A stretch of DNA of 64,000 nt from an uncultured Actinomycetota bacterium (GTDB lineage Bacteria; Actinomycetota; Actinomycetes; Mycobacteriales; CADCTP01): contig OY970235.1 of assembly GCA_963714145.1 (NCBI GenBank), positions 7,962,499 to 8,026,498 on the forward strand. Reading direction: 5' to 3'. Numbering within the stretch: the first letter of the stretch is position 1; each line of letters begins with the position of its first letter. Below the pieces are notes generated by a model. It was given only the letters and a program-made list of their open reading frames with translations. It was not told where the DNA came from and made no database searches. This document shows positions 2,881 to 52,897 of the stretch, in pieces. A program made the translations under genes and the position numbers.

Positions 2881-5660
2881 TCAGGTGCTGATCAGGTCGA
2901 ACTTCTCCCACGGACCGATCGCGGTGCGGTTGGCGATCAGTGCCGCCGCGCCGGCGTTCTCGGCCGTCACGTAGTTGCCGTTGGCCTGCGCGCGCAGGCT
3001 CACCGTGCCGTCCGGGTTGCGGATCAGCGCGAACGTCTCCCAGCCGCCGACGGCCGTCCGGTTGGCTATCAGCGGTTCGGCGCCGGCGTTCTCCGCGCAG
3101 ACGAGCAGCCCGTTGACCCGGGCCCGCAGCGCGATGTTGCCGTTGCCGAGGTCGATCTGCTCGAACTGCTCCCACGGCCCGATCGCGGGGGCGCTGGCGA
3201 TCAGCGGCGCGGCGCCGGCGTTGGCGGCGCTGACGTACTGCCCGTTGGCCAGGGCCCGCAGGCTGATCGAGCCGCCGCTGGCACCCGCGCCGAGCCCGAG
3301 CGTGGACGCCGTGCCGCGCAGCGTCTTGACGCTCTGGTTCGCCGTTCCGGTCAGCGTGGTCGCGGTGTACGCCGACAGCGGCTTGGCGGTGCGCTCGACG
3401 ACGTAGACCGTGTTGGCCGCGGTGGCGAAGGTGATCTCGGCCGCCGAGCTGGTCGCCAGGATCGCGTTGTCCGAAGTGCGGCGGACCCGGACCTGCTGCG
3501 GTGCCCCACGGGTTCACCACCCGGGCCGGCTTGCCGTACAGGCTCTTGCAGCCCGACGTACTTGATCTCGCCGGCCTCGCGCTCGGAGCTGACCAGGAAG
3601 CCGTCCTTGGCCAGCAGGGTGAACTTGCCGACGAAGCTGGCTGTCCGCCGGCACGGCCGGGAAGACCCGGATCTTGTCGTTGTAGCTCTGCAGCAGCGAC
3701 TCGTTCATCGCGGCCAGGTGCACGCCGAGGTACTCGAAGACGCCGTTGGTGTTGTTGGTCATGCCGTTCGGGTAGTTCTGGTAGCGCTGCAGCATCGTCT
3801 TCATGCCGTCGAACGCCTGGTCGCCGAGGCCGAGCCGGGCCGCCTGCACGGCGTCGTTGGCCCACACGTTGCCGTACGGGAGCGGCCGGGCGTTCCAGGT
3901 GTTCACGCGCGGTCTGGTAGTCGGGCGCGCCGATGCCGGTCAGGTCGTACGGCCAGATCAGCTCCGCCGCGACGTTCTCGTTGTTGCGGGTCTGCGCGAT
4001 CGGCGGGTCGTGCGGCAGGAAGGCGCCGTTGCTCGCTGGGTAGGGCGCCAGGTTGTCGAGCAGGTTCTGCCAGCCGGCGCGCAGCCCGCTGTCGAGGCCG
4101 AGCTGCGTGGCTGACCTGGATGGTCGAGCGGGAACAGGCTGCCGCACCGCGGCCAGGTCGGTGATCGCGTTGCGCACGTCCCAGTAGGTCTCGTGCGCGT
4201 TGGACGTGGCCATCTCGTACGTGCCGCCGCTCGAGCGGTCAGCTTGCGCTGGTAGAAGCGTGACCACGTCCCGCATGAACGGGTAGGCGGTGTCCCGCAG
4301 GTAGGCGGTGTCGTTGGTGTACCGGTACTGCAGGTACATGTTGTACGCGGCCTCGGTGCCGGTCGAGTAGATGTCGTTGACGTAGTCGCTGTTGACCGTG
4401 CCGCGGGCGTTGCCGTCCCAGCCCATCGTCTCCGGCACCCACAGCCCGTCGGTGCCGTACCGGGTCTGCGTGTACGCCTTCAGCGCGGCGGTGTTGCGGC
4501 TGTAGAGCCGGTTGAAGGTGGCGAGCAGGTCGGCGTGGTTGGACGCCAGGAACGAGTTGTAGACGTCGCGCTGGTTCCAGTACCAGTAGCCGTTGCTCCA
4601 CTTTGTCTGGTCGCCGGTGGCCCGGAACACGCCGTTGATGAAGTGGAGGGGTAGTTGCCGTAGCCGCCGGCCGCGATCATGTACGTGGCCAGGTAGTAGA
4701 CGTTCTCCAGGTAGTCGGCGTCGCCGCCGACGTTCGGAGTACTGCACGAACGACTCTGCCCAGAAGCCGTGCCACCAGTTCCGGTAGCTGGTCAGGGTGG
4801 TGGCGTAGCCGGTGCGTCTTGACCGCGGCGAGCTGCGTCTGCGGGCCTGGGCGACCGAGTCGAGGTTCGGGCGCGTTGACCCGGCTGGCCGCGGTGAACC
4901 AGATCGTGTAGCTGGACGTGGGCGTGATGCTCAGCCGGACCCGGGTGCCGTTCACCACCTGCGCGGTGTAGCTGGCGCCCTCGACGGTCGCGGCGAAGGT
5001 GTAGCCGAAGTGGTTCGGGTCGGCCTGGCCGCGGCTGAACCCGGCGCCGGTCGCGTCGGCGAAGGTGGATACCGTCCGCCAGGTGCTCAGGTTCGGCACG
5101 TCGGCGCTGTTGGTCGACCGTGCCCGGGTCCCACAGGCTGAGATCGAGGGTGATGCTGCGCGACGCCGGTGCGGCTGTCGTCGACGTGGATGCCCATGAC
5201 CTCGGAGTTCGGCGCGCCCATGCACCGTGACCGTGCGGTTCGCGTCGTACTTCGTGGTGAGCGTGCCGTCGTAGAGCGAGAGCCGCTGCTGGAACGTCGA
5301 GTAGCCGGTGTCCATAGCCGGGCTGGTGGTCAGGTTCGCGATGCCCGGCCGCGAACGCCGACTGCTGCGACAGGTCCACACCGGACACCTGCATGCGTGA
5401 GCCCGTTCTGGCTCCACACCATCGCACCGGTACGCGCCGTTGCCGACGGTCAGGCCGTGCACCGGGTTGGTGTTCGGTCGGTTGTAGACGATGTCGTGCT
5501 TGGACAGGTAGCCGGCGTAGTCGACGCTCAGCGCGCCGGCCGCGGCGTCGAACGCGGCATCCGTGGTAGCGGCCCGGGCTGGTGTGCTGACCGCCCCGGT
5601 CAGCACGAGCCCGGCGATCAGGGGAAGAGCCGCTCGGCGCAGCGGCGGCGAAGCCGTCAT
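2881..5660 (-). pseudogene. Secreted six-hairpin glycoside hydrolase (GH95-like/DUF5703-like N-terminus) with three C-terminal beta-trefoil (fascin/AbfB-like) repeats; multiply frameshifted
   Basis: Signal peptide MTASPPLRRAALPLIAGLVLTGAVSTPARA from ATG 5660. Conserved blocks (LSKHDIVYNRPNTNPVHGLTVGNG; MQVSGVDLSQQSAFAAG; HFINGVFRATGDQTKWSNGYWYWNQRDVYN; NTWNARPLPYGNVWANDAVQAARLGL) are scattered over all three minus frames, with at least 8 shifts by my reading. The tail ANGQYVSAANAGAAPLIA...ANGNYVTAENAGAAALIANRTAIGPWEKFDLIST ends at TGA 2881-2883. Confidence 0.65.
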
Positions 5661-5912
5661 GCTAGATCCCTTCTGGATCGCGCGCTCCGACCCGGTGCCT
5701 GGCACCGCGCCACAACGCGTTTTCATCCAGACGGAACCCCTCGCCGATGGGGACCGCTGAGGCCATCGAAACGCCAGGCGCCTGTTGCGCCTGCTTTACA
5801 CAATCGATGTACCTTGTGATAGGACCTTAATATAGAACGTGAAGTCAATGGCCCGAACGAGTTACTGCGGCCTGTATCGGGTGATCAGGCCGGTTCGGGT
5901 CGCCGGGCGGAG

Positions 5913-6659
5913 TCAGGTGCGCAGGTAGGAGGCGCCGTTCAGGTCGAGGACGGCGCCGGTGGCGAACTCGGCGGCCGGTGAGGCCAGGTAGAGCACGGCG
6001 GCGGCCACCTCGTCGGCCCGGGCGACCCGGCCGAGCGGGCTCTGCGCCCGGATCCGGTCGCCGTCCGGTCCGTCCAGGAACTCGGCCGCCATCTCGGTCT
6101 CGACGAAGCCGGGCGCGACGGTGGTGATCGTGATCCCGGTACCGCCGAGCGCCTGGGCCAGCGACTGGCCCATCGAGTTGAGCCCGGCTTTGCTGGCACC
6201 GTACGCGGGGTGGTCCGGCTCGCCGCGGAAAGCGCCCCGGGACGACACGTTCACGATCCGCCCGCCGGCCCGCATGTGCCGTACCGCGCACCAGGTTGTG
6301 TTGGCCGCGCCGATCAGGTTCACGTCCAGCACCCGCCGCCACGCCTGCTGCCACTGCTCGTACGTGCTCTCCAGGATGGGGTGCCCGACATACACGCCGG
6401 CGTTGTTGACCAGCACGTCCAGGCCGCCGAGCGCCTCGGCCGCCGCATCTACCATCGCGCGCACCGCCGCCGGGTCGGCCAGGTCGGCCCGCACGGTGAC
6501 GTGCCCGCCACCGGCCAGCGCGGCGACCGTGGCCTGGGCCGCCGCGGGGGACGCCCGGTGGTGCACGGCGACCCGGTCACCCTGGGCCGCGAACGCCACC
6601 GCGACCGCCCGCCCGATCCCGCGCGACGCCCCGGTCACCAGCACCTTCCGCCCGTCCAT
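5913..6659 (-). CDS. SDR-family oxidoreductase (FabG-like)
   Basis: TGASRGIGRA cofactor motif, NNAG, and the catalytic Y-x-x-x-K (YGASKAG). 248 aa, intact. Confidence 0.9.
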   Translation of the reverse strand: MDGRKVLVTGASRGIGRAVAVAFAAQGDRVAVHHRASPAAAQATVAALAGGGHVTVRADLADPAAVRAMVDAAAEALGGLDVLVNNAGVYVGHPILESTYEQWQQAWRRVLDVNLIGAANTTWCAVRHMRAGGRIVNVSSRGAFRGEPDHPAYGASKAGLNSMGQSLAQALGGTGITITTVAPGFVETEMAAEFLDGPDGDRIRAQSPLGRVARADEVAAAVLYLASPAAEFATGAVLDLNGASYLRT

Positions 6660-6692: not shown

Positions 6693-7283
6693 TCAGCGGG
6701 CCCAGCGGGTCAGGAAGTCGCGGACCTGGGCGGCGGTCATGCCGCGGGCGTTGGCGAACGAGCCGTCGTTGGTGGTGACCCTGACCTGGCCGGCCGCGGT
6801 GAGCACGGCCAGCGCGGGAATGCCGCTGCTGTTCAGGTCGACGTACCGGCCAGCTACCTCGAGGTTGTGATCGAACTCGCCGACGTAGATCGCGACCAGG
6901 TGGTAGTGCTGGCGCAGCACGGGCTGGACGGCCGGTGACCGGAACAACTGGTGCAGCACGACGCAGTCCGGGCACCAGTCGGCGCCGAAGTCGAGCAGGA
7001 TCTCGCGGTGGTCGGCGCGGGCCAGGGCGCGTGCCGCGGCGATGTCGGCGGTGGCGTTGCGGGCCGGGTCGTAGCGCTCGGGCAGGGCGGCCGCGGTCGG
7101 GGTCGGGGTCGGCTTCGGGCCGGGCGGTCGGGCCGAGGTCGGCGTGGGGTCGGACGCCGCCGGGCTCGCCGTCGTGGTCGGCGGGCTGCCGGTCCGGGCC
7201 GCGCCGCCGCGGGTGCACCCGACCAGGGTGGTGGTGGCCAACCCGATGACCAGCACGGCACGCAGCCGCGGCGAAACCGACAC
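6693..7283 (-). CDS. Thioredoxin-fold lipoprotein
   Basis: Lipobox LVGC after a hydrophobic N-terminus, a Pro/Thr-rich linker, and a WCPDC redox motif. The start is assigned to GTG 7283 (no in-frame ATG) and is uncertain. Confidence 0.7.
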   Translation of the reverse strand: MSVSPRLRAVLVIGLATTTLVGCTRGGAARTGSPPTTTASPAASDPTPTSARPPGPKPTPTPTAAALPERYDPARNATADIAAARALARADHREILLDFGADWCPDCVVLHQLFRSPAVQPVLRQHYHLVAIYVGEFDHNLEVAGRYVDLNSSGIPALAVLTAAGQVRVTTNDGSFANARGMTAAQVRDFLTRWAR

Positions 7284-7477
7284 AGCGGATCGTAACGGAC
7301 AGTCGCGTTGAGTCGACAATATTTCACCCGGAGTGGCGACGCGCTGCCCGCCTTCGTTGTACGTTCCGACGATTAGGACGAAGACGATGGGACGTACCTC
7401 TTCCCCCGGAGGTGGGGGCAATCAGATCATTGCGGTGCCGGGTGGCCGGCTCGGTGTGGGTGGCAGGCGGGTGAGGC

Positions 7478-8686
7478 ATGACGGTGCTGGTGGACGACCC
7501 GGACCCGGGGTTGGCCGGGCCCCGGGGTGACGGTGTGATCGACGTCGCCGGCCAGCGGCTGACCGTGGCCGAGTTCCTGGCCGAGTGCGCCCGCACCCTC
7601 GGCGATCCGGCCGCCCCGATCGCCGCCCAGCGGGACCGCTTCCTCGCCGCCGGGCTGGCCGCGCTGCGCCGGGCCCCGGACGGTCGCGAGTGGACGGCGG
7701 TCGGGCTGCGCCCGGCGGACGGGCGGTTCGCCGAACTGTGCGCGGAACTCGGCACCGCCGCCCGCGGCCTGCTGGCCGCCGGAGCGACCAACTTCTTCTT
7801 CATGCGCAAGCCGCCTGGGCTGCGGGTGCGGCTCGCCGGCCCGCCGGATCTCGCCGCTGCACTTCGCTCGCATGTGGACAGTTGGCGTTCGGATGGTCTG
7901 CTGGCCGAGGTCGTGCCGAGCGGGTACGAGCCGGAAGAGCACCTGTTCGGCGGACCGGTGTCGATGCGATACGTGCACCGACTGTTCACTGTGGACTCGC
8001 TGGCCTGGCTCGACCACGCCGCGCGCTCCGGCGGCCTGCCGGCCTGGGCATTCTCGCTGCGGCTGATCCGGGCGCTGCTGGACGGGCTGGAGATCGTCGG
8101 TTGGGAGGACCTGGACGTCTGGGACCGGCTGCGCCGCCAGGCTTACCGGACGCTGCCGGCGCCGGTGACGGGCACCGCCGCGTATGCGGCGGCGGCCGAG
8201 GGGGTCCGGGCCGCCTGGGCCGGCGCTGACGATCCGGTCGCGGGCTTTCCGGCCACGGGCTTTCCGGCCGCGGGCTCTGCGGTCGCGGGCTCTGCGGTCG
8301 CGGGCTCTGCGCCCGCGGGCTTTCCGGTCGAGGTGAAAGCGGTTGCAGCGGAGTGGCGGGCCGGCTACTTCGCCACCCCCGAGGCGTACGTCGGGCCGCG
8401 CGAAGCCGCCGCATTCGCGATCGTGTTCCACTGGAACCGCGGCGGCCTCCCACCGCTGCGCCAGGGCCTGCTCGCCGAAGCGCTGGCCGACCGGGCCGCC
8501 CTGTCGGCTCGGGGTGCCGGGTCGGCTGGGGGCGCCGGGTCGGCTCGGGATGCCGAGTTGGCTCGGGGTGCTGGGTCGGCCGGGGGTGCTGAGTCGGCTC
8601 GGGGTGTCGAGTCGGCCAGCGGTGGCTCGACACCCAGGGGTGTCGGGCCGGCCGGGGGCGCCGGGTCGGGTGGGTGGGCCCGGTGA
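7478..8686 (+). CDS. lanB: Split LanB, elimination-domain protein (SpaB_C / thiopeptide-type bacteriocin biosynthesis domain) with repeat-rich C-terminal tail
   Basis: REWTAVGLRP...ATNFFFMRKPPGLRVRLAG...GYEPEEHLFGG...FTVDSLAWL matches the W...FFFiRY..gpHlRlR...Y.pE..RYGG pattern of LanB C-terminal domains. The stop overlaps the next ORF's start. Confidence 0.8.
   Translation: MTVLVDDPDPGLAGPRGDGVIDVAGQRLTVAEFLAECARTLGDPAAPIAAQRDRFLAAGLAALRRAPDGREWTAVGLRPADGRFAELCAELGTAARGLLAAGATNFFFMRKPPGLRVRLAGPPDLAAALRSHVDSWRSDGLLAEVVPSGYEPEEHLFGGPVSMRYVHRLFTVDSLAWLDHAARSGGLPAWAFSLRLIRALLDGLEIVGWEDLDVWDRLRRQAYRTLPAPVTGTAAYAAAAEGVRAAWAGADDPVAGFPATGFPAAGSAVAGSAVAGSAPAGFPVEVKAVAAEWRAGYFATPEAYVGPREAAAFAIVFHWNRGGLPPLRQGLLAEALADRAALSARGAGSAGGAGSARDAELARGAGSAGGAESARGVESASGGSTPRGVGPAGGAGSGGWAR
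8237..8326 (+). repeat. Six in-frame 15-bp tandem units (GFPAT/GFPAA/GSAVA...)
   Basis: gtcgcgggctttccg / gccacgggctttccg / gccgcgggctctgcg / gtcgcgggctctgcg x2 / cccgcgggctttccg, read directly. Confidence 0.9.
8504..8670 (+). repeat. In-frame 18-bp tandem units (SARGAG/SAGGAG...), degenerating toward the 3' end
   Basis: tcggctcggggtgccggg / tcggctgggggcgccggg / tcggctcgggatgccgag / ttggctcggggtgctggg / tcggccgggggtgctgag / tcggctcggggtgtcgag ... Confidence 0.85.
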
Positions 8687-11600
8687 CCGAGGTGGCGCTG
8701 CTCCGGGTCTGCGGCCTGCCCGGGTCCGGATGGACAGTCGCGGCGGCGCCTGACCTGTTCGAGTTGGCCGGGGCGCTGGACGCCGGCGCCGAACGGCTGC
8801 GGGCCGACGCGACGGCGCTGGCGGCCCGGATCGGCGCCGAGCTGGTGCCCGGGCCGGAACTATCCACTGTGGATCGTGGGCGGGCACTCGCGGTCCGGCG
8901 GGCACTGCATACGACCGGCGATGCCCCCGCCGCCGACCTGGCCGCGGTCGCCGACCTTGCCGACTCGGTCCGACCCGGTCCGGTCGGGGCCGGGCAATCC
9001 GGCTGGGTCGGGGCCGGGCAGTCCGGCTGGGGCGGGCCTGGGCAGTCCGGCCCGGTCGGAGCCGGGCGATCTGGCCGGGTCGGGCCTGGGGAGTCCGGCC
9101 GGTCCGGTCCGGTCGGGGCTGAGCTGATCGGTCCGGTCGGGCCCGGGGCGGCCGAGCCGGGCCGGGCCGAGCCGCCCGGGCCGGTCGGGGTGGGGTTGGC
9201 CGGGTCTGAGCCGGTCGGCCTGGTTGCGGCCGGGTTGGCCGGGGCAGCGGGCGGTGAGGGCCCACTGGGTCAGGCGTTGCGCGGGCTGGCTGAGCGGCAG
9301 CACGCGCTCGCCGCGGCGGTGGAGCGGTTCGACGCCGCGGTCGAGGCGGCCCAGACCGGGTGGCTCGGCGCCGCCTGGCAGGTGGTCGGCGAGTCGGCGA
9401 CGGCTCGGCGGGCGGTCCGGGCGGCGAATCCGCTGGCGCTGGCCGATATCGCCGCGCGGCTGGCTGCGGGTGAGCCGTGGACCGGGAAGCGGTTGCGGCA
9501 GCGGGCCGACTACCTGTGGCGGCTGGCGACCCGGGGCAGTACCCGGGCCACCCCACGCGGCTGGCTCGGCCACCTGGCGCTGCTCCCGATCGACCCGGCC
9601 ATCCCGGCCGGGCCGCTGCCGCCGCTGCTGCCGGAGTACGCGATCGAGCAGGCCGGGAACCTGCACGTAGCGGCGCTGGCCGGCCTGGCCGCGGACTCGG
9701 TGTTGACGGTCGCGCCGCTGCACCGGTCCGGCGCCGGTCAGAGCCGGTTCTGGGTGGTCCGGCCGGAGGAACCGTCCCGGCTGATCGAGCTGACCGTCCG
9801 GACCACGCCGGTGCTGGCGGCGATCGTCCGCGCGCTGCGCGAGCGGCCGTTGACCACCAACCAGCTCTGGTCCGAAGTGGACGGGCCGGCGCTGCCGCGC
9901 CGGGAGGTGTTCGACGGGTTCGTCCGGCACCTTGTCGGGCTGGGCGTGCTGGCCGCTGCCGCCCGACCCGGCTGGACGGTGCACGGCTGGCGCCCCTGGC
10001 CGGCCGACCCGCTGGCTGAGCCGGCGACCGGGCCGCTGGCTGAGTCGTCGGCCGACTCGCCGGCTGGGCCGTTGGCTGAGCCGTTGGCCAACCCGTCGGC
10101 CCGGTCGTTGGCTGAGTTGCCGGCCGGGCCGTTGGCCGACCCGTCCGTCGGGCCGTTGGCTGAGCCACTGACGAACCCGCCGGCCGAGCCGTCGGCCGAC
10201 CCGCCGGCTGGGCCGTTGGCTGACCGGTCGGTCGGGCCGCTGGCTGAGCTGGCGGTCGAGCCGCCGGCCGGGTCGTTGGCCGACCCGTCGGCCGGGCTGG
10301 CGGTCGAGCCGGGTGGCTACGTCGATGTCTACCGGCGGGCGGCCGGCGGGCTGTCCCGGGCCACGTGCGCCGAGCTGGCGGAGCTGGTCGGCCTGGCGCT
10401 ACGGGTGCTGGCCGTGCTGGACAGCGAGCAGCCGCGACCCGCCGCGGGTCCTGACCTTCCGGACCCCGGCCCCGCGGAGCCGCGCCCGCTGCTGGAGCTG
10501 GTGGCCGCGGATGTCGCCGCCGAGCACGCCAGCGACCGTCCACTCCGGACCGAAGTGGACCCGGGGCATCACCATGACTGGCCGCCGGTCGAGGACCCGG
10601 AGTCGCCACCCGGCCGGCTGCTCGGCTGGCTGGCCGACCGGCTGGATGCCGGGCCGGTCGACGTCGACGCCAGCGTGCTCGACCGGAGCGCCCAGCTGGA
10701 CTGGCCGGCCGACTGCCTGATCCGTCCATTGTGGCCGGGCGCGGCCGGGCTGCGCGAGGTGCCGGACCGGCCGGGCGCGGCCGGGCCGCGGGCGGTGCTG
10801 GACCGGATCGAGCCGACCGGGCTGCTGGACGCCCGGTTCGGGCACGGGCTGGCGGCGCTGTTCGATGCCGGTGCCGCCCGGGCCGGCTGGTACCGGGAAT
10901 TCCTGCGTGCGGTGGAGGAGGCAGCTCGCGGTCGGTTCGTCGAGCTGCTCGCGCCGGCGCTGTCGGACCGGGCCGCGAACGCGGTGCGCCGGCCGCTGCA
11001 CACCAGCTACTGGACCGGTGACCCGGATCTGCTCCGCTACTGCCCGACTCCGCCCGGGCCGGCGCCGCGATTCATCCCGCTTGCCGATATCACCGTCCGG
11101 CAGGTGGCCGGCGCGCCGGTGGTGGTGGCCGGCAGCGAGCCGATCTGGCCCGTCTACCACGCCACCCGCCAGCTACCGCCGCCCTGGGACGCGTTGGCCC
11201 GGAGGCTGCTCGGCGCCGGGCCGGCACCACCTCGGTCCCGCTGGCGCTCGCTGCGGTACTCGCTGCCGGCGTGGCCGGGGCGTGACTTCGTCCCGCGGAT
11301 CACTGTCGGCGCCGGCGCGCTGGTGCTGACGTGTGCGCAGTGGCGGGTCCGGCCGGGCGATCTCTGGCCGGCCACGGCCCCGCTGGCCGCGAAGGTGCGG
11401 GCGCTCGACCGGCTGCGCCGCCGGCTCGAACTACCGCGGTGGATCACCGCCGCGACCTCGGTGCACGACGAGCCGACCGCCTGCGACCTGCTCAGCCTGC
11501 AGGCGGTCGCGGTGCTCGACCGGCTGCTGCGGCACCGGGTGGAAGCGCTTTACCTTGCCGAGATGCTGCCGTCCCCGCCGCAGTTCCCGGTGTCCGACCA

Positions 11601-11733
11601 GGCCGCCGGATCGGGCCGCAGCCAGGCCGAACTGCTGTTCCGGCTGCCGCTCGGTGCCTCGCCCACCGCGATGGCCGCCCGCGCGGCCGCCGCCTATCAG
11701 AGCCGGGCCGCGCCGCTCGTGCCGGCCCGCTGA
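8674..11733 (+). CDS. lanB: Split LanB, glutamylation-domain lanthipeptide dehydratase (Lant_dehydr_N-like) with two low-complexity insertions
   Basis: N-terminus VALLRVCGLP...RALAVRRALH and C-terminal ...LPRWITAATSVHDEPTACDLLSLQAVAVLDRLL are typical of the LanB N-domain, and no SpaB_C-like end is present. GTG 8674 or GTG 8683 (GTGA overlap with the upstream stop) could be the start. Confidence 0.8.
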   Translation: MGPVTEVALLRVCGLPGSGWTVAAAPDLFELAGALDAGAERLRADATALAARIGAELVPGPELSTVDRGRALAVRRALHTTGDAPAADLAAVADLADSVRPGPVGAGQSGWVGAGQSGWGGPGQSGPVGAGRSGRVGPGESGRSGPVGAELIGPVGPGAAEPGRAEPPGPVGVGLAGSEPVGLVAAGLAGAAGGEGPLGQALRGLAERQHALAAAVERFDAAVEAAQTGWLGAAWQVVGESATARRAVRAANPLALADIAARLAAGEPWTGKRLRQRADYLWRLATRGSTRATPRGWLGHLALLPIDPAIPAGPLPPLLPEYAIEQAGNLHVAALAGLAADSVLTVAPLHRSGAGQSRFWVVRPEEPSRLIELTVRTTPVLAAIVRALRERPLTTNQLWSEVDGPALPRREVFDGFVRHLVGLGVLAAAARPGWTVHGWRPWPADPLAEPATGPLAESSADSPAGPLAEPLANPSARSLAELPAGPLADPSVGPLAEPLTNPPAEPSADPPAGPLADRSVGPLAELAVEPPAGSLADPSAGLAVEPGGYVDVYRRAAGGLSRATCAELAELVGLALRVLAVLDSEQPRPAAGPDLPDPGPAEPRPLLELVAADVAAEHASDRPLRTEVDPGHHHDWPPVEDPESPPGRLLGWLADRLDAGPVDVDASVLDRSAQLDWPADCLIRPLWPGAAGLREVPDRPGAAGPRAVLDRIEPTGLLDARFGHGLAALFDAGAARAGWYREFLRAVEEAARGRFVELLAPALSDRAANAVRRPLHTSYWTGDPDLLRYCPTPPGPAPRFIPLADITVRQVAGAPVVVAGSEPIWPVYHATRQLPPPWDALARRLLGAGPAPPRSRWRSLRYSLPAWPGRDFVPRITVGAGALVLTCAQWRVRPGDLWPATAPLAAKVRALDRLRRRLELPRWITAATSVHDEPTACDLLSLQAVAVLDRLLRHRVEALYLAEMLPSPPQFPVSDQAAGSGRSQAELLFRLPLGASPTAMAARAAAAYQSRAAPLVPAR
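8983..9105 (+). repeat. Five in-frame 24-bp tandem units (VGAGQSGW-type)
   Basis: gtcggggccgggcaatccggctgg repeated with small changes; it encodes VGAGQSGW VGAGQSGW GGPGQSGP VGAGRSGR VGPGESGR. Confidence 0.9.
10008..10305 (+). repeat. About 300-bp in-frame low-complexity array (PLAE/PxAGPLA-type units)
   Basis: Encodes PLAEPATGPLAESSADSPAGPLAEPLANPSARSLAELPAGPLADPSVGPLAEPLTNPPAEPSADPPAGPLADRSVGPLAELAVEPPAGSLADPSAG. Confidence 0.85.
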
Positions 11734-11762
11734 TCCACCGGCGAAGGGAGGAGCACCCACCT

Positions 11763-11777
11763 CGTCCACTGTGGACG
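11763..11777. promoter_or_regulatory. Perfect 15-bp interrupted palindrome CGTCCAC-T-GTGGACG in the lanB-lanA intergenic region (candidate operator)
   Basis: Read directly. It lies 60 nt upstream of the precursor ATG and is a member of the over-represented CCACWGTGG family (see findings). Confidence 0.4.
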
Positions 11778-11836
11778 GAGTTGGCACCGAACCGGGCCGC
11801 TCGAACGGGCGGCCCAGTCACTCGAGGAGGAGCACC

Positions 11837-12001
11837 ATGCCGCCGACCACCGACCTGACCCCCAGCGTCCCGGTCGACTCCATCGAAGCACTGATCGCCG
11901 AGCTGGAGGCGCAGACCGAGCGCGAGGTCCCGCTCAGCGACATCACGGACCCCTGGCCGTCCGAGATCTGCACCGGCCGCTTCACCTGCGTCCCGCGCTA
12001 A
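11837..12001 (+). CDS. lanA: Lanthipeptide-type precursor peptide (54 aa)
   Basis: GAGGAGGAG RBS 4-5 nt before the ATG. Sequence MPPTTDLTPSVPVDSIEALIAELEAQTEREVPLSDITDPWPSEICTGRFTCVPR. It has an acidic helical leader and a Ser/Thr/Cys-containing C-terminus, and it sits between the dehydratase and the cyclase. Confidence 0.7.
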   Translation: MPPTTDLTPSVPVDSIEALIAELEAQTEREVPLSDITDPWPSEICTGRFTCVPR

Positions 12002-12086
12002 CCGGACCGACCCGCCGGCGCGTCGGCTGGGCCCACACCCAGCCGGCGCGCCGGCTCCACCAGGGAGCACTCATGCCGGTCCCGAG

Positions 12087-13352
12087 GTGCCGAACGGTTG
12101 CCGCCGGCCCGACCCGTACCGCCGCGGCCGGCCGGAAGCGCCGACCGTGATCCGCGCCGGCGCGACCGACGGGGGTATATCGACCGGCGGCAGTACCGGG
12201 CACGGCTCCGGTGCCAACGGCGGTGGCCGGCAGTTGGGCCTGCCGGATGCCGATCTGGCCGGCGTCGTGGCGGAGGTCGCCATCGGTCCGGGGCTGCGGC
12301 AGACCGGCGACGCGGGAGTCGGCGTGCTGCTCGGGTTGGTCAGGACGGAACTGCCGGTGCGGCAGGCGTTGCTGGCCGAGTGGCTCGGTGGGCTGCGCGC
12401 CGGGGCCGCCGGCGGTGGGCTGTTCGGCGGTGGGTCGGCCGGGCACGCCGTCGGGCTGGCGTACGCGGCCGAGGCCGAGCCGAGGCTGGCCGGGTTGGCC
12501 ACCCGCCGGCGGGCGGCGTTGGCCGGCTGGGCCGGCGCGAGCCCGTGGCGCGGCGATGCGGTCGGCTGGGCCGACTATGACCTGATGACCGGGCCGGCGG
12601 GGGTGCTGCTCGCGCTGGCCAGCCTGCCGGCGCCCGCGCCGGCCGAGATCCGCCCGCTGGCCGAGCACCTCGCCGGCCTGACCGGCGACCTGGACCGGTT
12701 GCGGGTGCGGCGGCATGCCGGTGACGGTCAGGCCGCCCAACTCGGCCACCTCGACCACGGCCTGGCCCACGGCCTCGCCGGCGTCGTGGCCGCAATGACC
12801 GCTGCCGCCCGGCTGTTCGGACCCGAACCGCCCGGGTTGCGCCGGGCCGCGCACCGGCTCCGTGCGACGTCCTATGTGGACAGTACCGGCGTAGCGAGCT
12901 GGCCGCCGAGCAGCGCCGGGGCCGACCCGTCCCGTCCGGTCCACCGGCAGGCCTGGTGCTACGGCGCGCCGGGCGTTGCCTGGGCGCTCTGGGATGCCGG
13001 CCAGCTGTTGGGCGATGCCGAGCTGACCGGCCTCGCGGCCGCGGCGATGGCCAGCCTCTGCGCGGCCTGGGACGACGACCGCTACCTCTACGGCGAGCTG
13101 GGCGACCGGCTCGGCGTCTGTCACGGCGCGGCCGGTGTTCTCGCCGTCGCCGACGCGTTCGCCCGGCACGCCGGGCACCAGCCAGCGGCCGGGCTGCGTA
13201 CCCACCTGCGCGGCCGGATTGACCCGGACCGCATCGCCGAGCTCGGCCGTACCGACCTGACCATGCTCAACGGCGCGGCCGGCGTGCTGACTGTGCTGAC
13301 CACTGTGGACGGTGGCCGGCGCGACTGGCTGCCGGTGCTGGGGCTGCGATGA
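12087..13352 (+). CDS. lanC: LanC-type lanthipeptide cyclase
   Basis: GLAHGLAG, WCYGAPGVAWAL and CHGAAGVL motifs (Zn ligands Cys/Cys/His). The true start is uncertain (GTG 12087 or a later GTG). The stop overlaps the next ATG (ATGA). Confidence 0.9.
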   Translation: MPNGCRRPDPYRRGRPEAPTVIRAGATDGGISTGGSTGHGSGANGGGRQLGLPDADLAGVVAEVAIGPGLRQTGDAGVGVLLGLVRTELPVRQALLAEWLGGLRAGAAGGGLFGGGSAGHAVGLAYAAEAEPRLAGLATRRRAALAGWAGASPWRGDAVGWADYDLMTGPAGVLLALASLPAPAPAEIRPLAEHLAGLTGDLDRLRVRRHAGDGQAAQLGHLDHGLAHGLAGVVAAMTAAARLFGPEPPGLRRAAHRLRATSYVDSTGVASWPPSSAGADPSRPVHRQAWCYGAPGVAWALWDAGQLLGDAELTGLAAAAMASLCAAWDDDRYLYGELGDRLGVCHGAAGVLAVADAFARHAGHQPAAGLRTHLRGRIDPDRIAELGRTDLTMLNGAAGVLTVLTTVDGGRRDWLPVLGLR

Positions 13353-15112
13353 CCGCGGTACTGCGGATGCTGCTCGCCGTCTCCCGCCGGAAAGTGGCGG
13401 CACTCGCGGTGGTCGTGCTGGTGCAGGCGCTCGCCCCGGTCGCGGCGGTGGTCGCGGTCGGGCACCTGCTCGGTGCGGTGGTCGCGCTGCGCACCGATCC
13501 GGGCGCGCCCGGCCGGGCCTGGCTCGCGTTCGCGCTGCTGGCTGCCGCCTGGCTGGCCGATCAGCTGGCCCAGTTCGCCGGCGCGGCGCTCACCGCCCGG
13601 CTGAGCCGGCTGGTGGCCGAGCACATCACCGGCGCGGTGCTGGCGGCCAGCCTCCACCCGGTCGGCATCGGTCACCTGGAGGATCCGGCGCGGGCCGATC
13701 AGTTCAGCCTGGCCCAGGGGCTCGGCGCCGGCAGCTTCCCGCCGGCCGCCGCGGTAGCCGCGCTGACCCAGGTGGCGGTGATCCGGCTGCAGGCGCTGGC
13801 CACGGCGGTGACGCTGGCCAGCGTGCTCTGGTGGGCGCCGCTGCCGCTGATTCTCGGCTGGGTACTGCTCGGCCGGCGCGTCGCCGGGCAACTCCGCGAG
13901 CAGGTGCGGGCGGTACAGGCGGAGACCGCGGCGCTGCGCCAGGCGACCTACTTCCGCACGCTCGGCCTGGACCTCGGCGCCGCCAAGGAGGTCCGGGTCT
14001 TCGGCCTCGGCGGCTGGCTGGCCGACCGGTTCACCGCCTGCTGGCAGGCCGGCATGGGTGAACTGCTCCGCCGCCGGGACAGCCGGCTGCCGCTGGCCTG
14101 GCGGACCGCGCTGCTGGTCGGCAGCTACGCGGCGGTGCTGACCGTCCTGGTGGACGCCACGCTGGCCGGTCGGGTGTCGATCACCGGGTTGACCATCGCG
14201 ATCCCGGCCGCGATCGCGATGTCCGGCTTCGGGTGGAGCGGGGATCCACAGTGGACGCTCGCCGGCGCGGCGCCGGCCATCCAGCAGGCGCTGGCACTGT
14301 CCGAGCCGGCGCCGCCGCGCGCCGGTCGTGACCCGGACGGGCCGCGGGTCGGCATCCGGTTCGAGGACGTCAGCTTCGGCTACCCCGGCCGCCCGGACCG
14401 ACCGGCGGACCGGCTGAACCTGTGCATCCCGGCCGGCCAGTCGCTGGCCATCGTCGGCGCGAACGGAGCCGGCAAGACCACCCTCATCAAGCTGCTGGCC
14501 CGGCTGTACGAGCCGGCCGCGGGCCGGATCACGGTCGACGACGTCGATCTGCGCGAGCTGGACGCGGCCGGCTGGCGCCGCCAGCTCGCCATCGTCTTCC
14601 AGGACTTCCTCCGGCTGGAGCTGACCGCCCGCGACAACGTCGCATGTGGACGGTCCGGTACTCCGGTGGACGAGGCGGCGCTCGCCGCCGCCGCATCCGC
14701 GGCCGGTGCCGCGGACCTGATCGCGACGCTGCCGCAGGGCTGGGACACCGTGCTGTCCCGCCGGTTCGGCGACACCGAGCTGTCCGGCGGCCAGTGGCAG
14801 AAGCTGGCGCTGGCCCGGGCGCTCTACGCGGTGCGGCTCGGCGCCCGGGTGCTTGTCCTGGACGAGCCGACCGCGCAGCTGGACGCGGCGGCCGAGGCCG
14901 AGCTCTACGCGCGGTACCTGGAGCTCACCCGCGGGCTGACCACCGTGCTGGTCTCGCACCGGTTCAACACGGTCCGGCTGGCCGACCGGATCGTGGTGCT
15001 CGCCGGCGGCCGCATCGTCGAGGACGGCAGCCACGACGAGCTGATCCGAGCCGGTGACTGGTACGCCCGGATGTTCCGGCTGCAGGCCGACCGGCTCGCG
15101 GCGTCCACATGA
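13349..15112 (+). CDS. ABC exporter, fused permease/ATPase
   Basis: Six-TM-like N-terminal half. Walker A GANGAGKTT, signature LSGGQWQ, Walker B LVLDEPTA. ATGA coupling at both ends. Confidence 0.9.
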   Translation: MTAVLRMLLAVSRRKVAALAVVVLVQALAPVAAVVAVGHLLGAVVALRTDPGAPGRAWLAFALLAAAWLADQLAQFAGAALTARLSRLVAEHITGAVLAASLHPVGIGHLEDPARADQFSLAQGLGAGSFPPAAAVAALTQVAVIRLQALATAVTLASVLWWAPLPLILGWVLLGRRVAGQLREQVRAVQAETAALRQATYFRTLGLDLGAAKEVRVFGLGGWLADRFTACWQAGMGELLRRRDSRLPLAWRTALLVGSYAAVLTVLVDATLAGRVSITGLTIAIPAAIAMSGFGWSGDPQWTLAGAAPAIQQALALSEPAPPRAGRDPDGPRVGIRFEDVSFGYPGRPDRPADRLNLCIPAGQSLAIVGANGAGKTTLIKLLARLYEPAAGRITVDDVDLRELDAAGWRRQLAIVFQDFLRLELTARDNVACGRSGTPVDEAALAAAASAAGAADLIATLPQGWDTVLSRRFGDTELSGGQWQKLALARALYAVRLGARVLVLDEPTAQLDAAAEAELYARYLELTRGLTTVLVSHRFNTVRLADRIVVLAGGRIVEDGSHDELIRAGDWYARMFRLQADRLAAST

Positions 15113-16923
15113 GACTCGAATGGCTGCGGTTGTGGTCCGCGCTGCTGCGGCTGGCGCTGCGGGCCGATCGGCGGCGCGCGGTCACCGTGCTGCTGCTGGC
15201 CCCGCTGGCCGGCGCGGCGATCGGCGCTCCGGCGCTGGCTCTGAAATGGACAGTCGACGCGGTGGTCCGCGGCGATCGGGGGCAGGCGTTCGCGGCGGCG
15301 GCGGCGTTGGCCGGCGCCGTCGTCGCCGTCTCGCTGCTGGGCACCGCGGCCACCAGTGTCCGGCTGGCCCTGCAGCAGCAGGCCGGGCAGGCGCTGGACC
15401 GGCACCTGATCGAACTGTGCACCGGCATCCCCGGCCTGGACCGGCACGAGGATCCGGCCTTCCAGGACCGGCTGGAGATCCTGCACCGCAACCGGGACGT
15501 GCTCGCGTCCGCGATCAGCAGCCTGCTGGAGAACCTCCGCACCGGCGCCCGGCTGGTGTCGATGGTCGTCCTGCTCGCCGGTATCGACCTGCGACTGCTG
15601 CTGCTCCCGCTGTTCGCGCTGCCCACGGTGCTGGCGGCCGGCGCCGGGCAGCGGCTGCAGCGCCGCTGCGACGAGGAGATCGCCGCGCCGAGCCGGCTGC
15701 GTGGCTGGCTGTTCACCCTCGGCAGCACCGCCGGCCCGGCCAAGGAACTGCGCGTCTACAACCTGGCGGACGAGCTGACCCGCCGGCACGATCGCCTGCA
15801 GCAGGCGGTGAACGACCGCGACCAGTCCACCGCGATACGCGTCGCCGCGCTGGAGTTCGCCGGCTGGACGGTCTTCTGCGCCGGCATTCTCGGCGCGGTG
15901 GCGCTGGTACTGCACCGGGCCGTCCACGGCACGGCCACGGCCGGCGACGTCGTGCTGCTGGTCACGCTGGCTACCCAGGTGGACAGCACGGTCGCCACCG
16001 CCGCCCGCGCTGTCCAGTGGCTGCGCCGCGCCAGTTGGGCCGGCAGCCACTACCGCTGGTTGATCGGCGAGGCCGGCCCGTCCGGGTCGGTCGCCGGGCC
16101 GGCCCCGGAACCGGGCGAACTGGTCTTCGACCGGGTCACGTTCGGCTACCCGGGCCGGGAGCAGCCGGTGCTGCGGGAGGTGTCGCTGCGCATCCCGGCC
16201 GGCGCCACCGTAGCGCTGGTCGGTGCGAACGGCGCCGGCAAGTCCACAGTGGTCAAACTGCTCTGCCGGCTGTACGAGCCGACCAGCGGCCACATCCGCC
16301 TCGGCGGCCGGGACATCCGCGACTTTCCGCTGGACGCCTGGCGAGCCCGGATCACCGCCGCCTTCCAGGACTTCTACCGGTACGAGCTGCCGCTACGGGA
16401 CGGCGTCGGCATCGGCGACCTGTCCACTATGGACGATGCGGGCGCGGTCACCCGGGCGATCGCCCGGGCCGGCGCGACCGCGCTCGTGGACAGCCTGCCA
16501 GCCGGCGCGGCCACCCAGCTCGGCCGCAGCTACGCCGACGGCCAGGACCTCTCCGCCGGCCAGTGGCAACAGCTCGCCGTCGCCCGCGCGATGATGCGCG
16601 AACACCCGCTGCTCACCATCCTGGACGAACCCACCGCCAGCCTCGACCCGGCCGCCGAGCAGGCCCTGTTCGAGCGCTACGCCGCCGCGGCCGCCGACCC
16701 CACCAGCATCACCATCCTGGTCTCGCACCGCTTCTCCACCGTCCGCACCGCCGACCTGATCGTCGTCCTCGACTCCGGCCAGGTCCGCCAGTTCGGCACC
16801 CACCAACAACTCCTCGCCGAACCAGGCCCCTACGCCACCCTGGTAGCCCTGCACACCCGCGGCTTCGCCACTCCTGAAGCCACCGAGCCAGCCGCTGAGC
16901 CAACACCGCCGGTCCACCAGTAG
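15109..16923 (+). CDS. ABC exporter, fused permease/ATPase (probable heterodimer partner)
   Basis: Walker A GANGAGKST, signature LSAGQWQ, Walker B TILDEPTA. Confidence 0.9.
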   Translation: MRLEWLRLWSALLRLALRADRRRAVTVLLLAPLAGAAIGAPALALKWTVDAVVRGDRGQAFAAAAALAGAVVAVSLLGTAATSVRLALQQQAGQALDRHLIELCTGIPGLDRHEDPAFQDRLEILHRNRDVLASAISSLLENLRTGARLVSMVVLLAGIDLRLLLLPLFALPTVLAAGAGQRLQRRCDEEIAAPSRLRGWLFTLGSTAGPAKELRVYNLADELTRRHDRLQQAVNDRDQSTAIRVAALEFAGWTVFCAGILGAVALVLHRAVHGTATAGDVVLLVTLATQVDSTVATAARAVQWLRRASWAGSHYRWLIGEAGPSGSVAGPAPEPGELVFDRVTFGYPGREQPVLREVSLRIPAGATVALVGANGAGKSTVVKLLCRLYEPTSGHIRLGGRDIRDFPLDAWRARITAAFQDFYRYELPLRDGVGIGDLSTMDDAGAVTRAIARAGATALVDSLPAGAATQLGRSYADGQDLSAGQWQQLAVARAMMREHPLLTILDEPTASLDPAAEQALFERYAAAAADPTSITILVSHRFSTVRTADLIVVLDSGQVRQFGTHQQLLAEPGPYATLVALHTRGFATPEATEPAAEPTPPVHQ

Positions 16924-16975
16924 GGCCAGGGAGCAGCGGCCGGGATGCGGCCGGACACCGTCCACATGCGTCGCG

Positions 16976-18850
16976 TCAGCGGATGTGGATCTCCGGGGGC
17001 CGGGGTGGGCGTTCCGGGCGGCCGGGGTCTTCCGGGCCGAAGTGCGGTTCCTCGCCGGGGCGGAGCGGGCGCCGGCAGCCGTCGCACGGGCCGGTGCCGC
17101 CGCTGTCCAGGTAGCGGGCCTGGTTGGCCAGGTCGACGGCTCCGGCGGCAGGCTCCTCGGCCGCCGCCCGGTCGAAGACCGAGTCCGGGGCCAGCGGCGT
17201 GGCCAGCCGCACCGTGCGCAACCGGCCGAGCAGGTCGGTGAGGGCGGCCAGCCGCAGCCGGCCCGGCTCCGGAACGACCGCGTCGGCCACCGGCGGCGGC
17301 TCGGTGGCGCCGGCCAGCCGGTTCGTCCAGCGGTAGAAGACGTTCTTCAGCCGGCTGCCCTCGACCAGACCCTGCAGGTACTCCTGGACGATCTGGACGA
17401 CCTCGTGCCGGCCCAGGCTGACCAGCGGGATGGTGCTCGCGACCGCGGTCGCGGCGAGTTCGGCGGCCAGTTCGGCCTGCCTGGTCGCGGTGTCGGTGGC
17501 CCGCTGCTGGGTGTCCAGGCGGTCGACCCGTTCGCGCAGGTCGCCCGGGTCGCCGACGGGCGGGTCGAAGTGCGCGGTCGCGCCGCCGGCCGGGGACGAG
17601 AGGACGTCGGCGGTGTCGATCCGCAGCGTCGTCGCCTGGATCCGGCCGACCCGTGCGGCCAGGTCGCGCTCCACGCCGGTGGCCTCGTCGCCGCTGGGTG
17701 GGCTGGTCTCGTGGATCTTGCGGACGATGTTGACCAGCGGTGGCCGGATGGTGCTGCCAGCCGCGGTGAACTCCCGGCGGATCTCCTCGTACGCGGCCCG
17801 GGCGCCGTCGGCTTCGAGTTGGCGCTGCAACGCCACCGTGTACTTCGCCCGCAGTTGGCCGTGCAGCGTCGCGGCGATCGCGGCCGGCGCGGTCAAGCCG
17901 ATCAGCACGACCACCATCAGTCCAATGTGGACACCACTGAGCAGGCGGCGGCCGAGGCTCACTGCCGGCAGCACCGGAACGCGGCGCAGCCGGGTCGGGA
18001 CGGCGGCCAGCCACCCCGGCCGCAGCGCGAACGCGACGCTGGCGGCGGCCAGCAGCAGGTAGCCGGACGTCCAGACCCACCAGGGCAGGTCGGCCACCGA
18101 CCCGACCCGGGCCAGTGCGTCGCGGACCGCGACGACCTCCCAGCGCGGCAGGTCGAGCAGGTTGGCCAGCCAGACCAGGAACAGCAGCAGGCTGACACCG
18201 AGCAGCAGGGAGAGCACGACGTCGGCGCCGGCCCGCACCGGGAGCCGGCGGGCGCCGGCCATCGCCCGCCAGGTCCGTACCGCCGCCCAGGCGCCGATCG
18301 GCAGCAGTAGCCCGGCCAGCGAACGCGCGGCCAGCGGGTCGCGGCTGAACAGGACCGTGGCGGCGCCGCCGGCGGTGCCGGCGAGCAGCAGGTCGGGCAG
18401 GTGCCGCAGCGGCCACCGGCGGGCGGCCCGGAACCGACGGTGGGCCAGCAGACAGGCCCAGCCGCCGCCGGTGAGCACGATCGCCGCCGCCAGCACGGCC
18501 GCCGCGCCGCCGCCGTTCCCGTGCGGCCGGCCCGGTCCGATCTGCCAGACCAGCCAGCCCACCACCGGGCCGGCGAGCAGCAGCGCGCCGGCCCGGTACC
18601 GCAGCCCGTCCCCGGGCCGGAGCAGGCGGCCGACGGCGGTCAGCACCCGGCCGAGCCACACCGTGCCGAAACCGCCGAGGATGGTGATGGCGACGATCGA
18701 CTCCCACCAGGCCCCGGCCGCCGGCCCGGTGCGCCACAGGCCGACCACGACGGCGCCGGCGAGACCCAGCGCGACCGCGAGGCTGATCCGGCGGACCGCA
18801 GCCGGCCGCGACAGCACTTCGAACAGCCGCCGCATTCGCCTGCGCCCCAA
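16976..18850 (-). CDS. Polytopic membrane protein of unknown function with soluble C-terminal half
   Basis: Multiple hydrophobic helices (AVALGLAGAVVVGLW, ITILGGFGTVWLG, VLSLLLGVSLLLFLVWL, GLMVVVLIGLTAPAAIAA) followed by a charged helical region. It is the coherent frame among overlapping shadow ORFs. No family recognised. Confidence 0.55.
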   Translation of the reverse strand: MGRRRMRRLFEVLSRPAAVRRISLAVALGLAGAVVVGLWRTGPAAGAWWESIVAITILGGFGTVWLGRVLTAVGRLLRPGDGLRYRAGALLLAGPVVGWLVWQIGPGRPHGNGGGAAAVLAAAIVLTGGGWACLLAHRRFRAARRWPLRHLPDLLLAGTAGGAATVLFSRDPLAARSLAGLLLPIGAWAAVRTWRAMAGARRLPVRAGADVVLSLLLGVSLLLFLVWLANLLDLPRWEVVAVRDALARVGSVADLPWWVWTSGYLLLAAASVAFALRPGWLAAVPTRLRRVPVLPAVSLGRRLLSGVHIGLMVVVLIGLTAPAAIAATLHGQLRAKYTVALQRQLEADGARAAYEEIRREFTAAGSTIRPPLVNIVRKIHETSPPSGDEATGVERDLAARVGRIQATTLRIDTADVLSSPAGGATAHFDPPVGDPGDLRERVDRLDTQQRATDTATRQAELAAELAATAVASTIPLVSLGRHEVVQIVQEYLQGLVEGSRLKNVFYRWTNRLAGATEPPPVADAVVPEPGRLRLAALTDLLGRLRTVRLATPLAPDSVFDRAAAEEPAAGAVDLANQARYLDSGGTGPCDGCRRPLRPGEEPHFGPEDPGRPERPPRPPEIHIR

Positions 18851-24514: not shown

Positions 24515-24993
24515 AACACCACGGCGGGGGTGACGATCGGGCCGCCCGCACCGACCGGGCGGACGACGAACTGGACGATGCCGGCCGGGATGTCGGTGAA
24601 CACGAACCGACCCTGCTCGTCGGCGACCGTCCGGGTCGGTCCGCCGGTGGTCCGGACCTGCACGCTGTGGGTGCCGGGCGGGGTGAGCCAGCCGTCGATG
24701 GTGAAAGTGGAATCCGGCTGCCGGGCGACGCTGACCAGAACTGTCAGGTGGTCGTTGTGGAACGTGATGGTGCGGCTGCCGTCGTCCGCCCCGCGGGTGG
24801 CGACGAGGTCCTCGGCCCGGTCCGGCCGGAAGCTGTCCGCGTCCATGTTCTCCAGGCTCAGCGCGAACCCGATGCAGGTGAGCAGGTCGGCCGGCACCGG
24901 GTCGACGGCCGAATAGAGGGTCCGGACCCCGTCCAGGATGGCCAGGTCGGTCTCGTCGATGGGGTCGGACGGTTGCGGGTCGGCCGGCGTCAC
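24511..24993 (-). CDS. 160-aa protein coupled between the ECF sigma and CHAT genes; C-terminal carboxypeptidase-regulatory-like beta-sandwich; candidate anti-sigma/substrate
   Basis: GTG start in a GTGA overlap with the sigma stop, and its own stop overlaps the CHAT start. The ...VADEQGRFVFTDIPAGIVQFVVRP motif is present. No TM segment and no HxxxCxxC. Confidence 0.7.
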   Translation of the reverse strand: MTPADPQPSDPIDETDLAILDGVRTLYSAVDPVPADLLTCIGFALSLENMDADSFRPDRAEDLVATRGADDGSRTITFHNDHLTVLVSVARQPDSTFTIDGWLTPPGTHSVQVRTTGGPTRTVADEQGRFVFTDIPAGIVQFVVRPVGAGGPIVTPAVVL

Positions 24994-52775: not shown

Positions 52776-52897
52776 GTGTCATCCCGGCGACCGGCCTGCG
52801 TGGCAGGAGGAATGGCCTGCCGCGGTGATTCAGCGCGTCGCCGAACGACGTTCACGGCCCGATTCGGGTTGCGGGTGCCATGAGGGAGGGGGGCCGC

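Follow-up and report, generated by a model that had tools for sequence, protein, structure and literature searches.

Does the 54-codon open reading frame between a dehydratase gene and a cyclase gene in this DNA encode the precursor of a lanthipeptide, and if so, of what kind? A preliminary description of the window, the whole 64,000-nt stretch that was analysed, read it as the precursor of a class I lanthipeptide, modified by both halves of a split LanB and by a LanC, with a leader that lacks the familiar class I box and with an unfamiliar core. The first part of this reading is supported by homology, gene order and conservation: the gene is a real class I precursor gene. We consider it probable that the peptide is a genuine precursor of the SapT type of split-LanB class I lanthipeptide. 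The SapT-type "split dehydratase" enzyme set is known, and uncommon. The 15-residue core is new, and the enzymology, the leader type and the cluster architecture are of a kind already described.

A precursor gene between a split dehydratase and a cyclase

The genes at the locus are co-directional, in the order lyase, LanB-N, precursor, LanC and two ABC half-transporters, with the elimination half of the dehydratase first. The features are as follows.

7478-8686, + strand: stand-alone glutamate-elimination enzyme (glutamyl lyase, SptBb-like); Pfam Lant_dehydr_C, 1.5e-14; NCBIfam TIGR03891, 2.2e-22
8683-11733, + strand: stand-alone glutamylation enzyme (SptBa-like half of a split LanB), 1016 aa; Pfam Lant_dehydr_N, 1.1e-9
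11824-11832, + strand: ribosome-binding site GAGGAGGAG, read from the sequence; its GGAGG ends 6 nt before the ATG
11837-12001, + strand: LanA precursor peptide gene, 54 aa, assigned from translation, context, variants and a leader HMM
11873-11914, + strand: leader recognition motif VDSIEALIAELEAQ (residues 13-26), conserved in 6/6 variants and aligning with LTDLDALIDDLDERIT of SapT homologues
11954-11998, + strand: conserved core WPSEICTGRFTCVPR (residues 40-54), with 10/15 residues invariant in six variants and more synonymous than non-synonymous differences
12147-13352, + strand: LanC cyclase; Pfam LANC_like, 8.3e-19
13349-15112, + strand: ABC half-transporter 1 (probable exporter); Pfam ABC_tran; NCBIfam MsbA/bacteriocin-exporter-like
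15109-16923, + strand: ABC half-transporter 2, from Pfam and NCBIfam domain matches and related loci

The precursor gene translates as MPPTTDLTPSVPVDSIEALIAELEAQTEREVPLSDITDPWPSEICTGRFTCVPR and ends in a TAA stop codon. The preliminary description had placed Ser34, Thr37, Ser42, Cys45, Thr46, Thr50 and Cys51 correctly, and the strong ribosome-binding site and the position between dehydratase and cyclase that it gave are borne out: the stop codon of the Lant_dehydr_N protein is 103 nt upstream of the precursor, and the LANC_like protein begins 145 nt downstream. GAGGAG is found at an equal distance from the ATG in L004, L089 and L090; with the window, 4/4 loci for which DNA is available have it. 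The G+C content by codon position is 0.62/0.53/0.95, as is typical of genes that are translated in high-GC actinobacteria. An identical peptide is called on six contigs. The peptide has no match in Pfam or NCBIfam and thus no family model. Three features of a class I LanA are found here, namely adjoining LanB-type dehydratase functions, an adjoining LanC with its catalytic residues, and a C-terminal core containing Ser, Thr and Cys behind an N-terminal leader.

Diverged variants conserve the core

A full HMMER scan covering 1.84 billion representative proteins, together with a word-indexed search, identified five diverged variants of the precursor (P0002, P0003, P0015, P0016 and P0017) in soil metagenomes and MAGs. 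The core family totals six variants, all of them derived from metagenomes or MAGs. Contigs of a soil MAG labelled as a Mycobacteriales bacterium (GCA_035544115.1) match the window at 97-99% identity, as do further contigs from soil metagenomes. When metagenome contigs were searched with the precursor alignment, 600 pattern stretches matched and tblastn confirmed none of them. A degenerate DNA pattern for WPSE[IV]CT..R..TC found two contigs, both with peptides already known; hence, the core family is rare in that metagenome collection.

LanC is directly downstream in every variant with readable flanks, and the split LanB pair is also present on both contigs that extend far enough upstream (P0002 and P0016). 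The most distant full cluster, L090 (that of P0016), has only the lyase, LanB-N, the precursor and LanC in common with the window, and we therefore regard these four genes as the conserved unit. In L090, a gene for an APH-family kinase (5464-6603, + strand) directly follows LanC, where the ABC transporters would be, and may be an extra tailoring or resistance gene.

The six variants agree in two places. Ten of the 15 core residues are invariant (W40, P41, S42, E43, C45, T46, R48, T50, C51 and R54), giving the pattern W-P-S-E-x-C-T-x-R-x-T-C-x-x-R, and the helix of the leader is conserved, with D14, L19, I20, A21, L23 and E24 invariant. Residues 1-11 and the linker (residues 32-39) differ in both sequence and length. 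Summed over all pairs, core codons 40-54 have 20 synonymous versus 10 non-synonymous differences, the N-terminus 9 versus 40, and the linker 8 versus 32. The core is under purifying selection.

The leader resembles those of SapT-type precursors

The preliminary description called the leader acidic and noted that it lacks an F-N/D-L-D/E box. Both points stand: there are 9 Asp/Glu residues against 1 Arg (pI 4.05), and a regular-expression search of the leader found no F-[NDE]-[LIV]-[DENS] (FNLD-type) box. The leader is not unfamiliar, since it contains the SapT-type motif of the split-LanB family. Nisin-like leaders typically have an FNLD box, which is not a defining feature of class I.

The segment VDSIEALIAELEAQ fits the motif [L/V]-D/E-x-L-I-x-x-L-E/D of small ORFs at the same position in related loci. 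In an hhalign comparison of the six window-type peptides with 16 SapT-like peptides, VPVDSIEALIAELEAQTE pairs with IELTDLDALIDDLDERIT (E 6.5e-4). When the 64-kb window was divided into its 849 stop-to-stop segments, a leader HMM built from 68 leaders of other loci, none of them window-type, matched this ORF and no other (E 0.0097; next 4.5). The similarity to SapT-type leaders is short and, taken alone, statistically weak (11 bits; hhalign probability 27%), so that the match of IEALIAELEAQ to (E)LDxLIxDLE(E)R is significant only in combination with the gene context. Judged by sequence, the leader is nonetheless recognisable as SapT-type, unlike that of nisin.

The dehydratase is split, and its lyase has a syn-elimination signature

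The LanB of this locus is split, because Lant_dehydr_C (7478-8686) and Lant_dehydr_N (8683-11733) are encoded by separate genes, which overlap by stop and start codons. The start of the lyase is set at 7478 or 7583 by the gene caller on related contigs. A phmmer search of PDB sequences with the lyase alone returned only noise; MibB and NisB were reached only with a profile of 14 homologues, which matches the elimination domains of MibB (5EHK, 5.4e-6) and NisB. The lyase contains the motifs FFFMRK111PPGLR116VR118 and YEPEEHL156FGG. In the profile alignment to MibB and NisB, Lys111 falls on a Tyr and Leu156 on an Arg (NisB Arg826), and both glutamate-binding Arg residues are kept. The Lys and Leu signature is at least 90% conserved across ~75 loci, and the window lyase clusters with lyases from loci whose precursors are SapT-like. 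This constellation, that of SptBb and CoiSA(ED), has been described by the van der Donk laboratory, who found it predictive of D-allo-L-MeLan (PMC9011353, PMC9486935), and syn-elimination to (E)-Dhb has been demonstrated for this lyase type (PMC9890492). Since the active-site signature is of the SptBb/CoiSA type, we predict that the window lyase catalyses syn elimination to give (E)-Dhb, a prediction that rests on two or three residues.

The match of the glutamylation enzyme to Pfam Lant_dehydr_N is confined to its C-terminal part, and the enzyme has no NCBIfam match. At the N-terminus, a profile of the LanB-N family matches TbtB (6EC7), a thiopeptide split LanB, at 4.7e-6; this is its sole PDB match. 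The enzyme is 33-45% identical to the LanB-N proteins of 80 actinobacterial loci, and the lyase/LanB-N pair is 33-47% identical to the pairs that flank SapT-homologue precursors in Streptomyces loci. LanC, aligned to NisC, has GLAHGLAG (the His acid) and both WCYGAPG and CHGAAG (the Cys, Cys and His zinc ligands) in place.

The lyase and transferase genes also contain in-frame, G+C-rich tandem repeats with periods of 15-84 nt (8233-8330, 8503-8669, 8975-9243, 10001-10317 and 10733-10825). The repeats account for the length of the transferase, 1016 aa versus ~815 aa in its relatives (~200 extra residues). They coincide with gapped or unaligned stretches relative to the 97-99% identical L001-L003, with breaks at ~8526-8593 and 10474-10497, and the identity of LanB-N to those loci falls to 94%. 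The identical 1016-aa enzyme is also found on a 10.08-Mb contig.

A probable short core with two predicted rings

Where does the core begin? The preliminary description proposed a core of 23 residues from Pro32. It was right to put Ser42, Thr46, Thr50, Cys45 and Cys51 in the core; the core as a whole is probably too long. In the six-variant alignment, conservation begins at W40. In SptA, the core starts 22 residues past the first residue of LDTLISDLE, and the same register counted from I16 leads to residue 38. The core is thus probably (DP)WPSEICTGRFTCVPR. Ser34 and Thr37 are in the non-conserved linker; because conservation begins at Trp40 and the SptA register points to ~Asp38, they are probably outside the core and unlikely to be modified.

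The core contains only two Cys residues and can therefore form at most two rings, as the preliminary description concluded. SEIC-TGRFTC parallels SGLC-TIVIC of SapT, with the arrangement S-x-x-C-T-x(3-4)-C. By analogy, a Ser42-Cys45 lanthionine followed consecutively by a Thr46-Cys51 methyllanthionine is plausible, and the latter is possibly D-allo-L. We rate the specific ring topology and stereochemistry modelled here at about an even chance. The invariant Thr50 may be Dhb or Thr in the product. We predict a product of ~15-17 residues that is bicyclic, polar and slightly cationic. Its core has two Arg, one Glu, one Ser, two Thr and two Cys residues, ends in VPR, and has a GRAVY of -0.18, compared with +1.56 for SapT.

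Outside the six variants, the nearest of the cores examined are those of two Nonomuraea peptides from L027, ...FWSVEICLTMMTCDCG and ...FWSVEICNPTASCPC, which begin W-x-S/V-E-I-C. A full-text search of one literature library for the string WPSEICTGR returned no paper. Within that library, the earlier remark that the core matches no described lanthipeptide holds.

Proposed pathway and alternative explanations

The analysis shows how the genes are ordered, their homologies, their active-site residues and the leader motif, and that the core is under purifying selection; from these we infer a series of chemical steps, with their ring topology, stereochemistry and cleavage site, and any biological activity. 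The acidic leader segment VDSIEALIAELEAQ, to judge by its conservation in the family, would dock the peptide on the 1016-aa glutamyl transferase. By homology to SptBa, TbtB and NisB, this enzyme would use Glu-tRNA(Glu) to esterify Ser42, Thr46 and perhaps Thr50. The separate lyase would then remove glutamate to leave Dha42 and Dhb46 (and Dhb50), by the predicted syn route to (E)-Dhb. The zinc-dependent LanC would join Cys45 to Dha42 and Cys51 to Dhb46, creating two consecutive, non-overlapping rings, of which the second might be a D-allo-L-methyllanthionine. The two ABC half-transporters would export the peptide, and a protease encoded elsewhere would cut the leader near Asp38-Trp40, as for SapT.

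Is the gene instead a chance open frame in a G+C-rich spacer, untranslated, with the enzymes acting on a peptide encoded elsewhere? Spurious ORFs abound in high-GC genomes (an 18 kb region here is overlapped by 121 ORFs of 40 aa or more), and this ORF has no Pfam or NCBIfam match. However, its ribosome-binding site is conserved in four loci, its GC3 is 0.95, its core is under purifying selection, a small ORF occupies the same position between LanB-N and LanC in dozens of loci, and an independent leader HMM picks out this ORF and no other. Because of this conservation, the explanation is effectively refuted, and we regard it as the least probable of all. Only slightly better placed, and still very unlikely, is the idea that the locus specifies a compound of the thiopeptide or pyritide kind; the Lant_dehydr_C protein would then be a [4+2] cyclase and not a glutamate lyase. 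The best NCBIfam match of that protein is the 'thiopeptide-type bacteriocin biosynthesis' domain, the LanB-N profile has a thiopeptide enzyme, TbtB, as its one match in the PDB, and split LanBs are typical of thiopeptides (PMC9011353). Yet the called Pfam-labelled genes within ~10 kb to the left and right include neither a YcaO or azoline-forming enzyme nor a second Lant_dehydr_C; the LanC of the locus has its zinc ligands intact; the core has one Ser and no Ser pair for a pyridine; and the lyase, which retains both glutamate-binding Arg residues, clusters with lyases of SapT-like loci.

A more serious alternative, which we consider possible but doubtful, is that the precursor is genuine and the product differs from the one modelled: a longer core from ~Pro32 with Ser34 and Thr37 dehydrated, other rings (Cys45-Dhb50 or Ser42-Cys51), or ordinary DL stereochemistry. 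Thr50 is invariant although the ring model does not need it, and several variants have Ser or Thr in the linker. Against this, residues 32-39 are conserved in neither sequence nor length, the SptA register puts the start of the core at about residue 38, S-x-x-C-T-x(3-4)-C is the SapT pattern, and the positions of Tyr and Arg in anti-lyases are taken by Lys and Leu in the lyase. We attach a smaller chance still, though one well above that of a chance frame or a thiopeptide, to a small, polar, cationic bicyclic peptide, made by machinery so far tied to hydrophobic Streptomyces morphogens, that could have either a free (E)-Dhb50 or, within a new scaffold, an allo-MeLan stereoisomer, and that would act in a new way, for example as an antibiotic or a signal rather than as a surfactant. 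To our knowledge, no free (E)-Dhb residue has been reported in a mature ribosomal peptide.

Comparison with known lanthipeptides

SapT, a class I lanthipeptide of Streptomyces lavenduligriseus Tu901, is specified by SptA/SptBa/SptBb/SptC and depends on a split LanB (PMC9011353, PMC9890492). Its precursor SptA consists of MPAHEITELDTLISDLEERITDEDLPTASV followed by YTQGCSGLCTIVICATVVICG, with the leader motif ELDTLISDLEERIT (PMC9011353 supplement). SapT and the window have in common a LanC, a dehydratase divided between a glutamyl transferase and a glutamate lyase, a leader motif (ELDxLIxDLE in SapT, IEALIAELE in the window), a lyase with Lys for Tyr and Leu for Arg and with both Arg residues kept, a core with a consecutive S-x-x-C / T-x3-4-C ring pattern, and a cluster without a protease gene. 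They differ in several respects. The SapT core has four Cys and is strongly hydrophobic, whereas that of the window has two, is polar and cationic, and is unrelated in sequence; the SapT host is a Streptomyces, and that of the window belongs to a soil Mycobacteriales-type MAG lineage; the window gene order of lyase, transferase, A and C is another difference; and the window transferase is, owing to its repeats, ~200 aa longer. Split polypeptides, the leader motif and the syn-lyase constellation are found at this locus, and the hydrophobic four-ring core of SapT is not. On this comparison, the peptide appears to be only a product of the same enzyme family and not a SapT orthologue. Since the core is polar and has two Cys, unlike SapT, no function is transferable and we do not expect a morphogen or surfactant role.

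The active site of the lyase also resembles that of the CoiSA elimination domain from the coi cluster of Streptomyces coelicolor (PMC9486935): both have the syn-lyase set of a conserved Lys, two Arg, a Glu and, in place of NisB Arg826, a hydrophobic residue. [quoted passage not shown] Split LanBs in class I clusters have also been noted elsewhere (PMC7268733). The pinensins of Chitinophaga pinensis are cited as the first lanthipeptides shown to have a split LanB (PMC7268733, PMC9011353); they come from Bacteroidota, and their precursor is not known to be related to that of the window. With nisin (NisA/NisB/NisC) the window is predicted to share Glu-tRNA-dependent dehydration followed by zinc-dependent cyclisation by LanC, with the catalytic residues of LanC conserved. 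In contrast, nisin-type systems have a single-polypeptide LanB, an FNLD box and an anti-lyase (Tyr, Arg826, His), and the window differs in each. The A/B ring motif with which nisin-type peptides bind lipid II is absent from the window core.

The family across actinobacteria

How widespread are such loci? Eleven homologues of the 1016-aa enzyme were found in a protein collection, on contigs with the same gene order and with small ORFs before LanC; these ORFs have a common leader segment and very different cores rich in Cys, Ser and Thr. A LanB-N profile recovered 80 reference-genome loci, from Streptomyces, Nonomuraea, Kutzneria, Kitasatospora, Actinophytocola, Streptoalloteichus, Kibdelosporangium and MAGs, and the lyase, LanB-N and LanC are in that order in 74 of the 80. 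The gaps between LanB-N and LanC, mined with the motif [L/V]-[D/E]-x-L-[I/V]-x-x-L-[E/D], contain 78 small ORFs with the leader motif, in 57 loci. These 78 precursors span Streptomyces, Nonomuraea, Kutzneria, Kitasatospora and MAGs, and their cores are very diverse. Many of the Streptomyces candidates are plain SapT homologues, such as ...CSGLCTIIVCATVVICA.

Four Nonomuraea loci (L022, L025, L027 and L028) are multi-precursor clusters, with 3-7 tandem precursor genes that differ in their cores. A recurrent Nonomuraea member keeps the leader motif and is without any Cys (...EPELVVVRKQLPPDRASLI); this peptide may be non-cyclised or regulatory.

What is the significance of the window peptide? Should the prediction be correct, it would take the syn-eliminating split-LanB pathway of the SapT type beyond Streptomyces morphogens and to a polar two-ring scaffold from uncultured soil actinobacteria. 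The survey shows that the SapT-type family is broad: 57 loci have 78 precursors with the leader motif. Genome mining often turns up unknown lanthipeptide cores, and the finding is therefore useful rather than surprising. With one Ser, two Thr and two Cys, the core would be a short, simple substrate for studies of (E)-Dhb and allo-methyllanthionine formation. According to the SapT authors, unmodified SptA was degraded in E. coli, which blocked in vitro work, and the Glu-tRNA of E. coli proved unsuitable for SptBa (PMC9011353).

Surroundings of the cluster

A G+C-rich hairpin lies just 3' of the precursor stop, and three further genes flank the cluster.

12016-12053, + strand: G+C-rich hairpin with a 16-bp stem, -49.2 kcal/mol, z -5.6
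6693-7283, - strand: Thioredoxin_7-like protein, divergent from the lyase gene and 195 nt away
5913-6659, - strand: SDR, divergent, upstream
16976-18835, - strand: 619-aa protein with no Pfam or NCBIfam match, beside the ABC genes in close relatives and on the P0002 contig

None of 200 shuffled sequences folds as well as the hairpin, and hairpins of differing sequence are found at the same place in L004, L089 and L090. A stem after lanA commonly raises the level of precursor mRNA over that of the enzyme mRNA. As the hairpin has no U-tract, we infer its role, which is probably that of an attenuator or an mRNA-stabilising stem. Scans of 7200-17200 for sigma-70 promoters and intrinsic terminators found none, and such scans are uninformative for a high-GC actinobacterium.

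A 25-codon ORF (12073-12150, + strand; MPVPRCRTVAAGPTRTAAAGRKRRP) with GGGAG 5 nt upstream follows the hairpin. Its TGA overlaps the called GTG start of LanC (GTGA, 12147-12150), which may reflect translational coupling or a mis-set LanC start. The ORF is also found in L001, and is impossible in L090, where LanC starts 12 nt past the precursor.

The gene for ABC half-transporter 1 overlaps both of its neighbours by stop and start codons; it is found in many related loci and is absent from L090. Neither half-transporter has a peptidase C39 domain in Pfam or NCBIfam, and the conserved four-gene unit contains no gene for a leader protease. Subtilases are the protease family of the LanP leader peptidases, and we considered a subtilase encoded at 25603-27213 on the - strand (Peptidase_S8, 5.9e-19) as a LanP-like protease. 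It is 13 kb away, on the opposite strand, and has no link to the cluster, and we rejected it. A gene for a CHAT-domain protein (21911-25015) lies between the cluster and the subtilase.

The P0002 cluster, which is 78% identical, retains both the thioredoxin-like gene and the SDR gene. We rejected them, together with the gene for the 619-aa protein, as core parts of the cluster, since all three are absent from L090 and other related loci. Any link of the thioredoxin-like and SDR genes to the Cys-containing peptide is conjectural. Further downstream, a 2810-aa ORF (52880-61312, + strand) combines an eCIS core domain at its N-terminus (2e-27) with an annexin repeat and, at its C-terminus, an Ntox4 toxin domain; by its domains, it looks like a large polymorphic toxin or a cargo of an extracellular contractile injection system.
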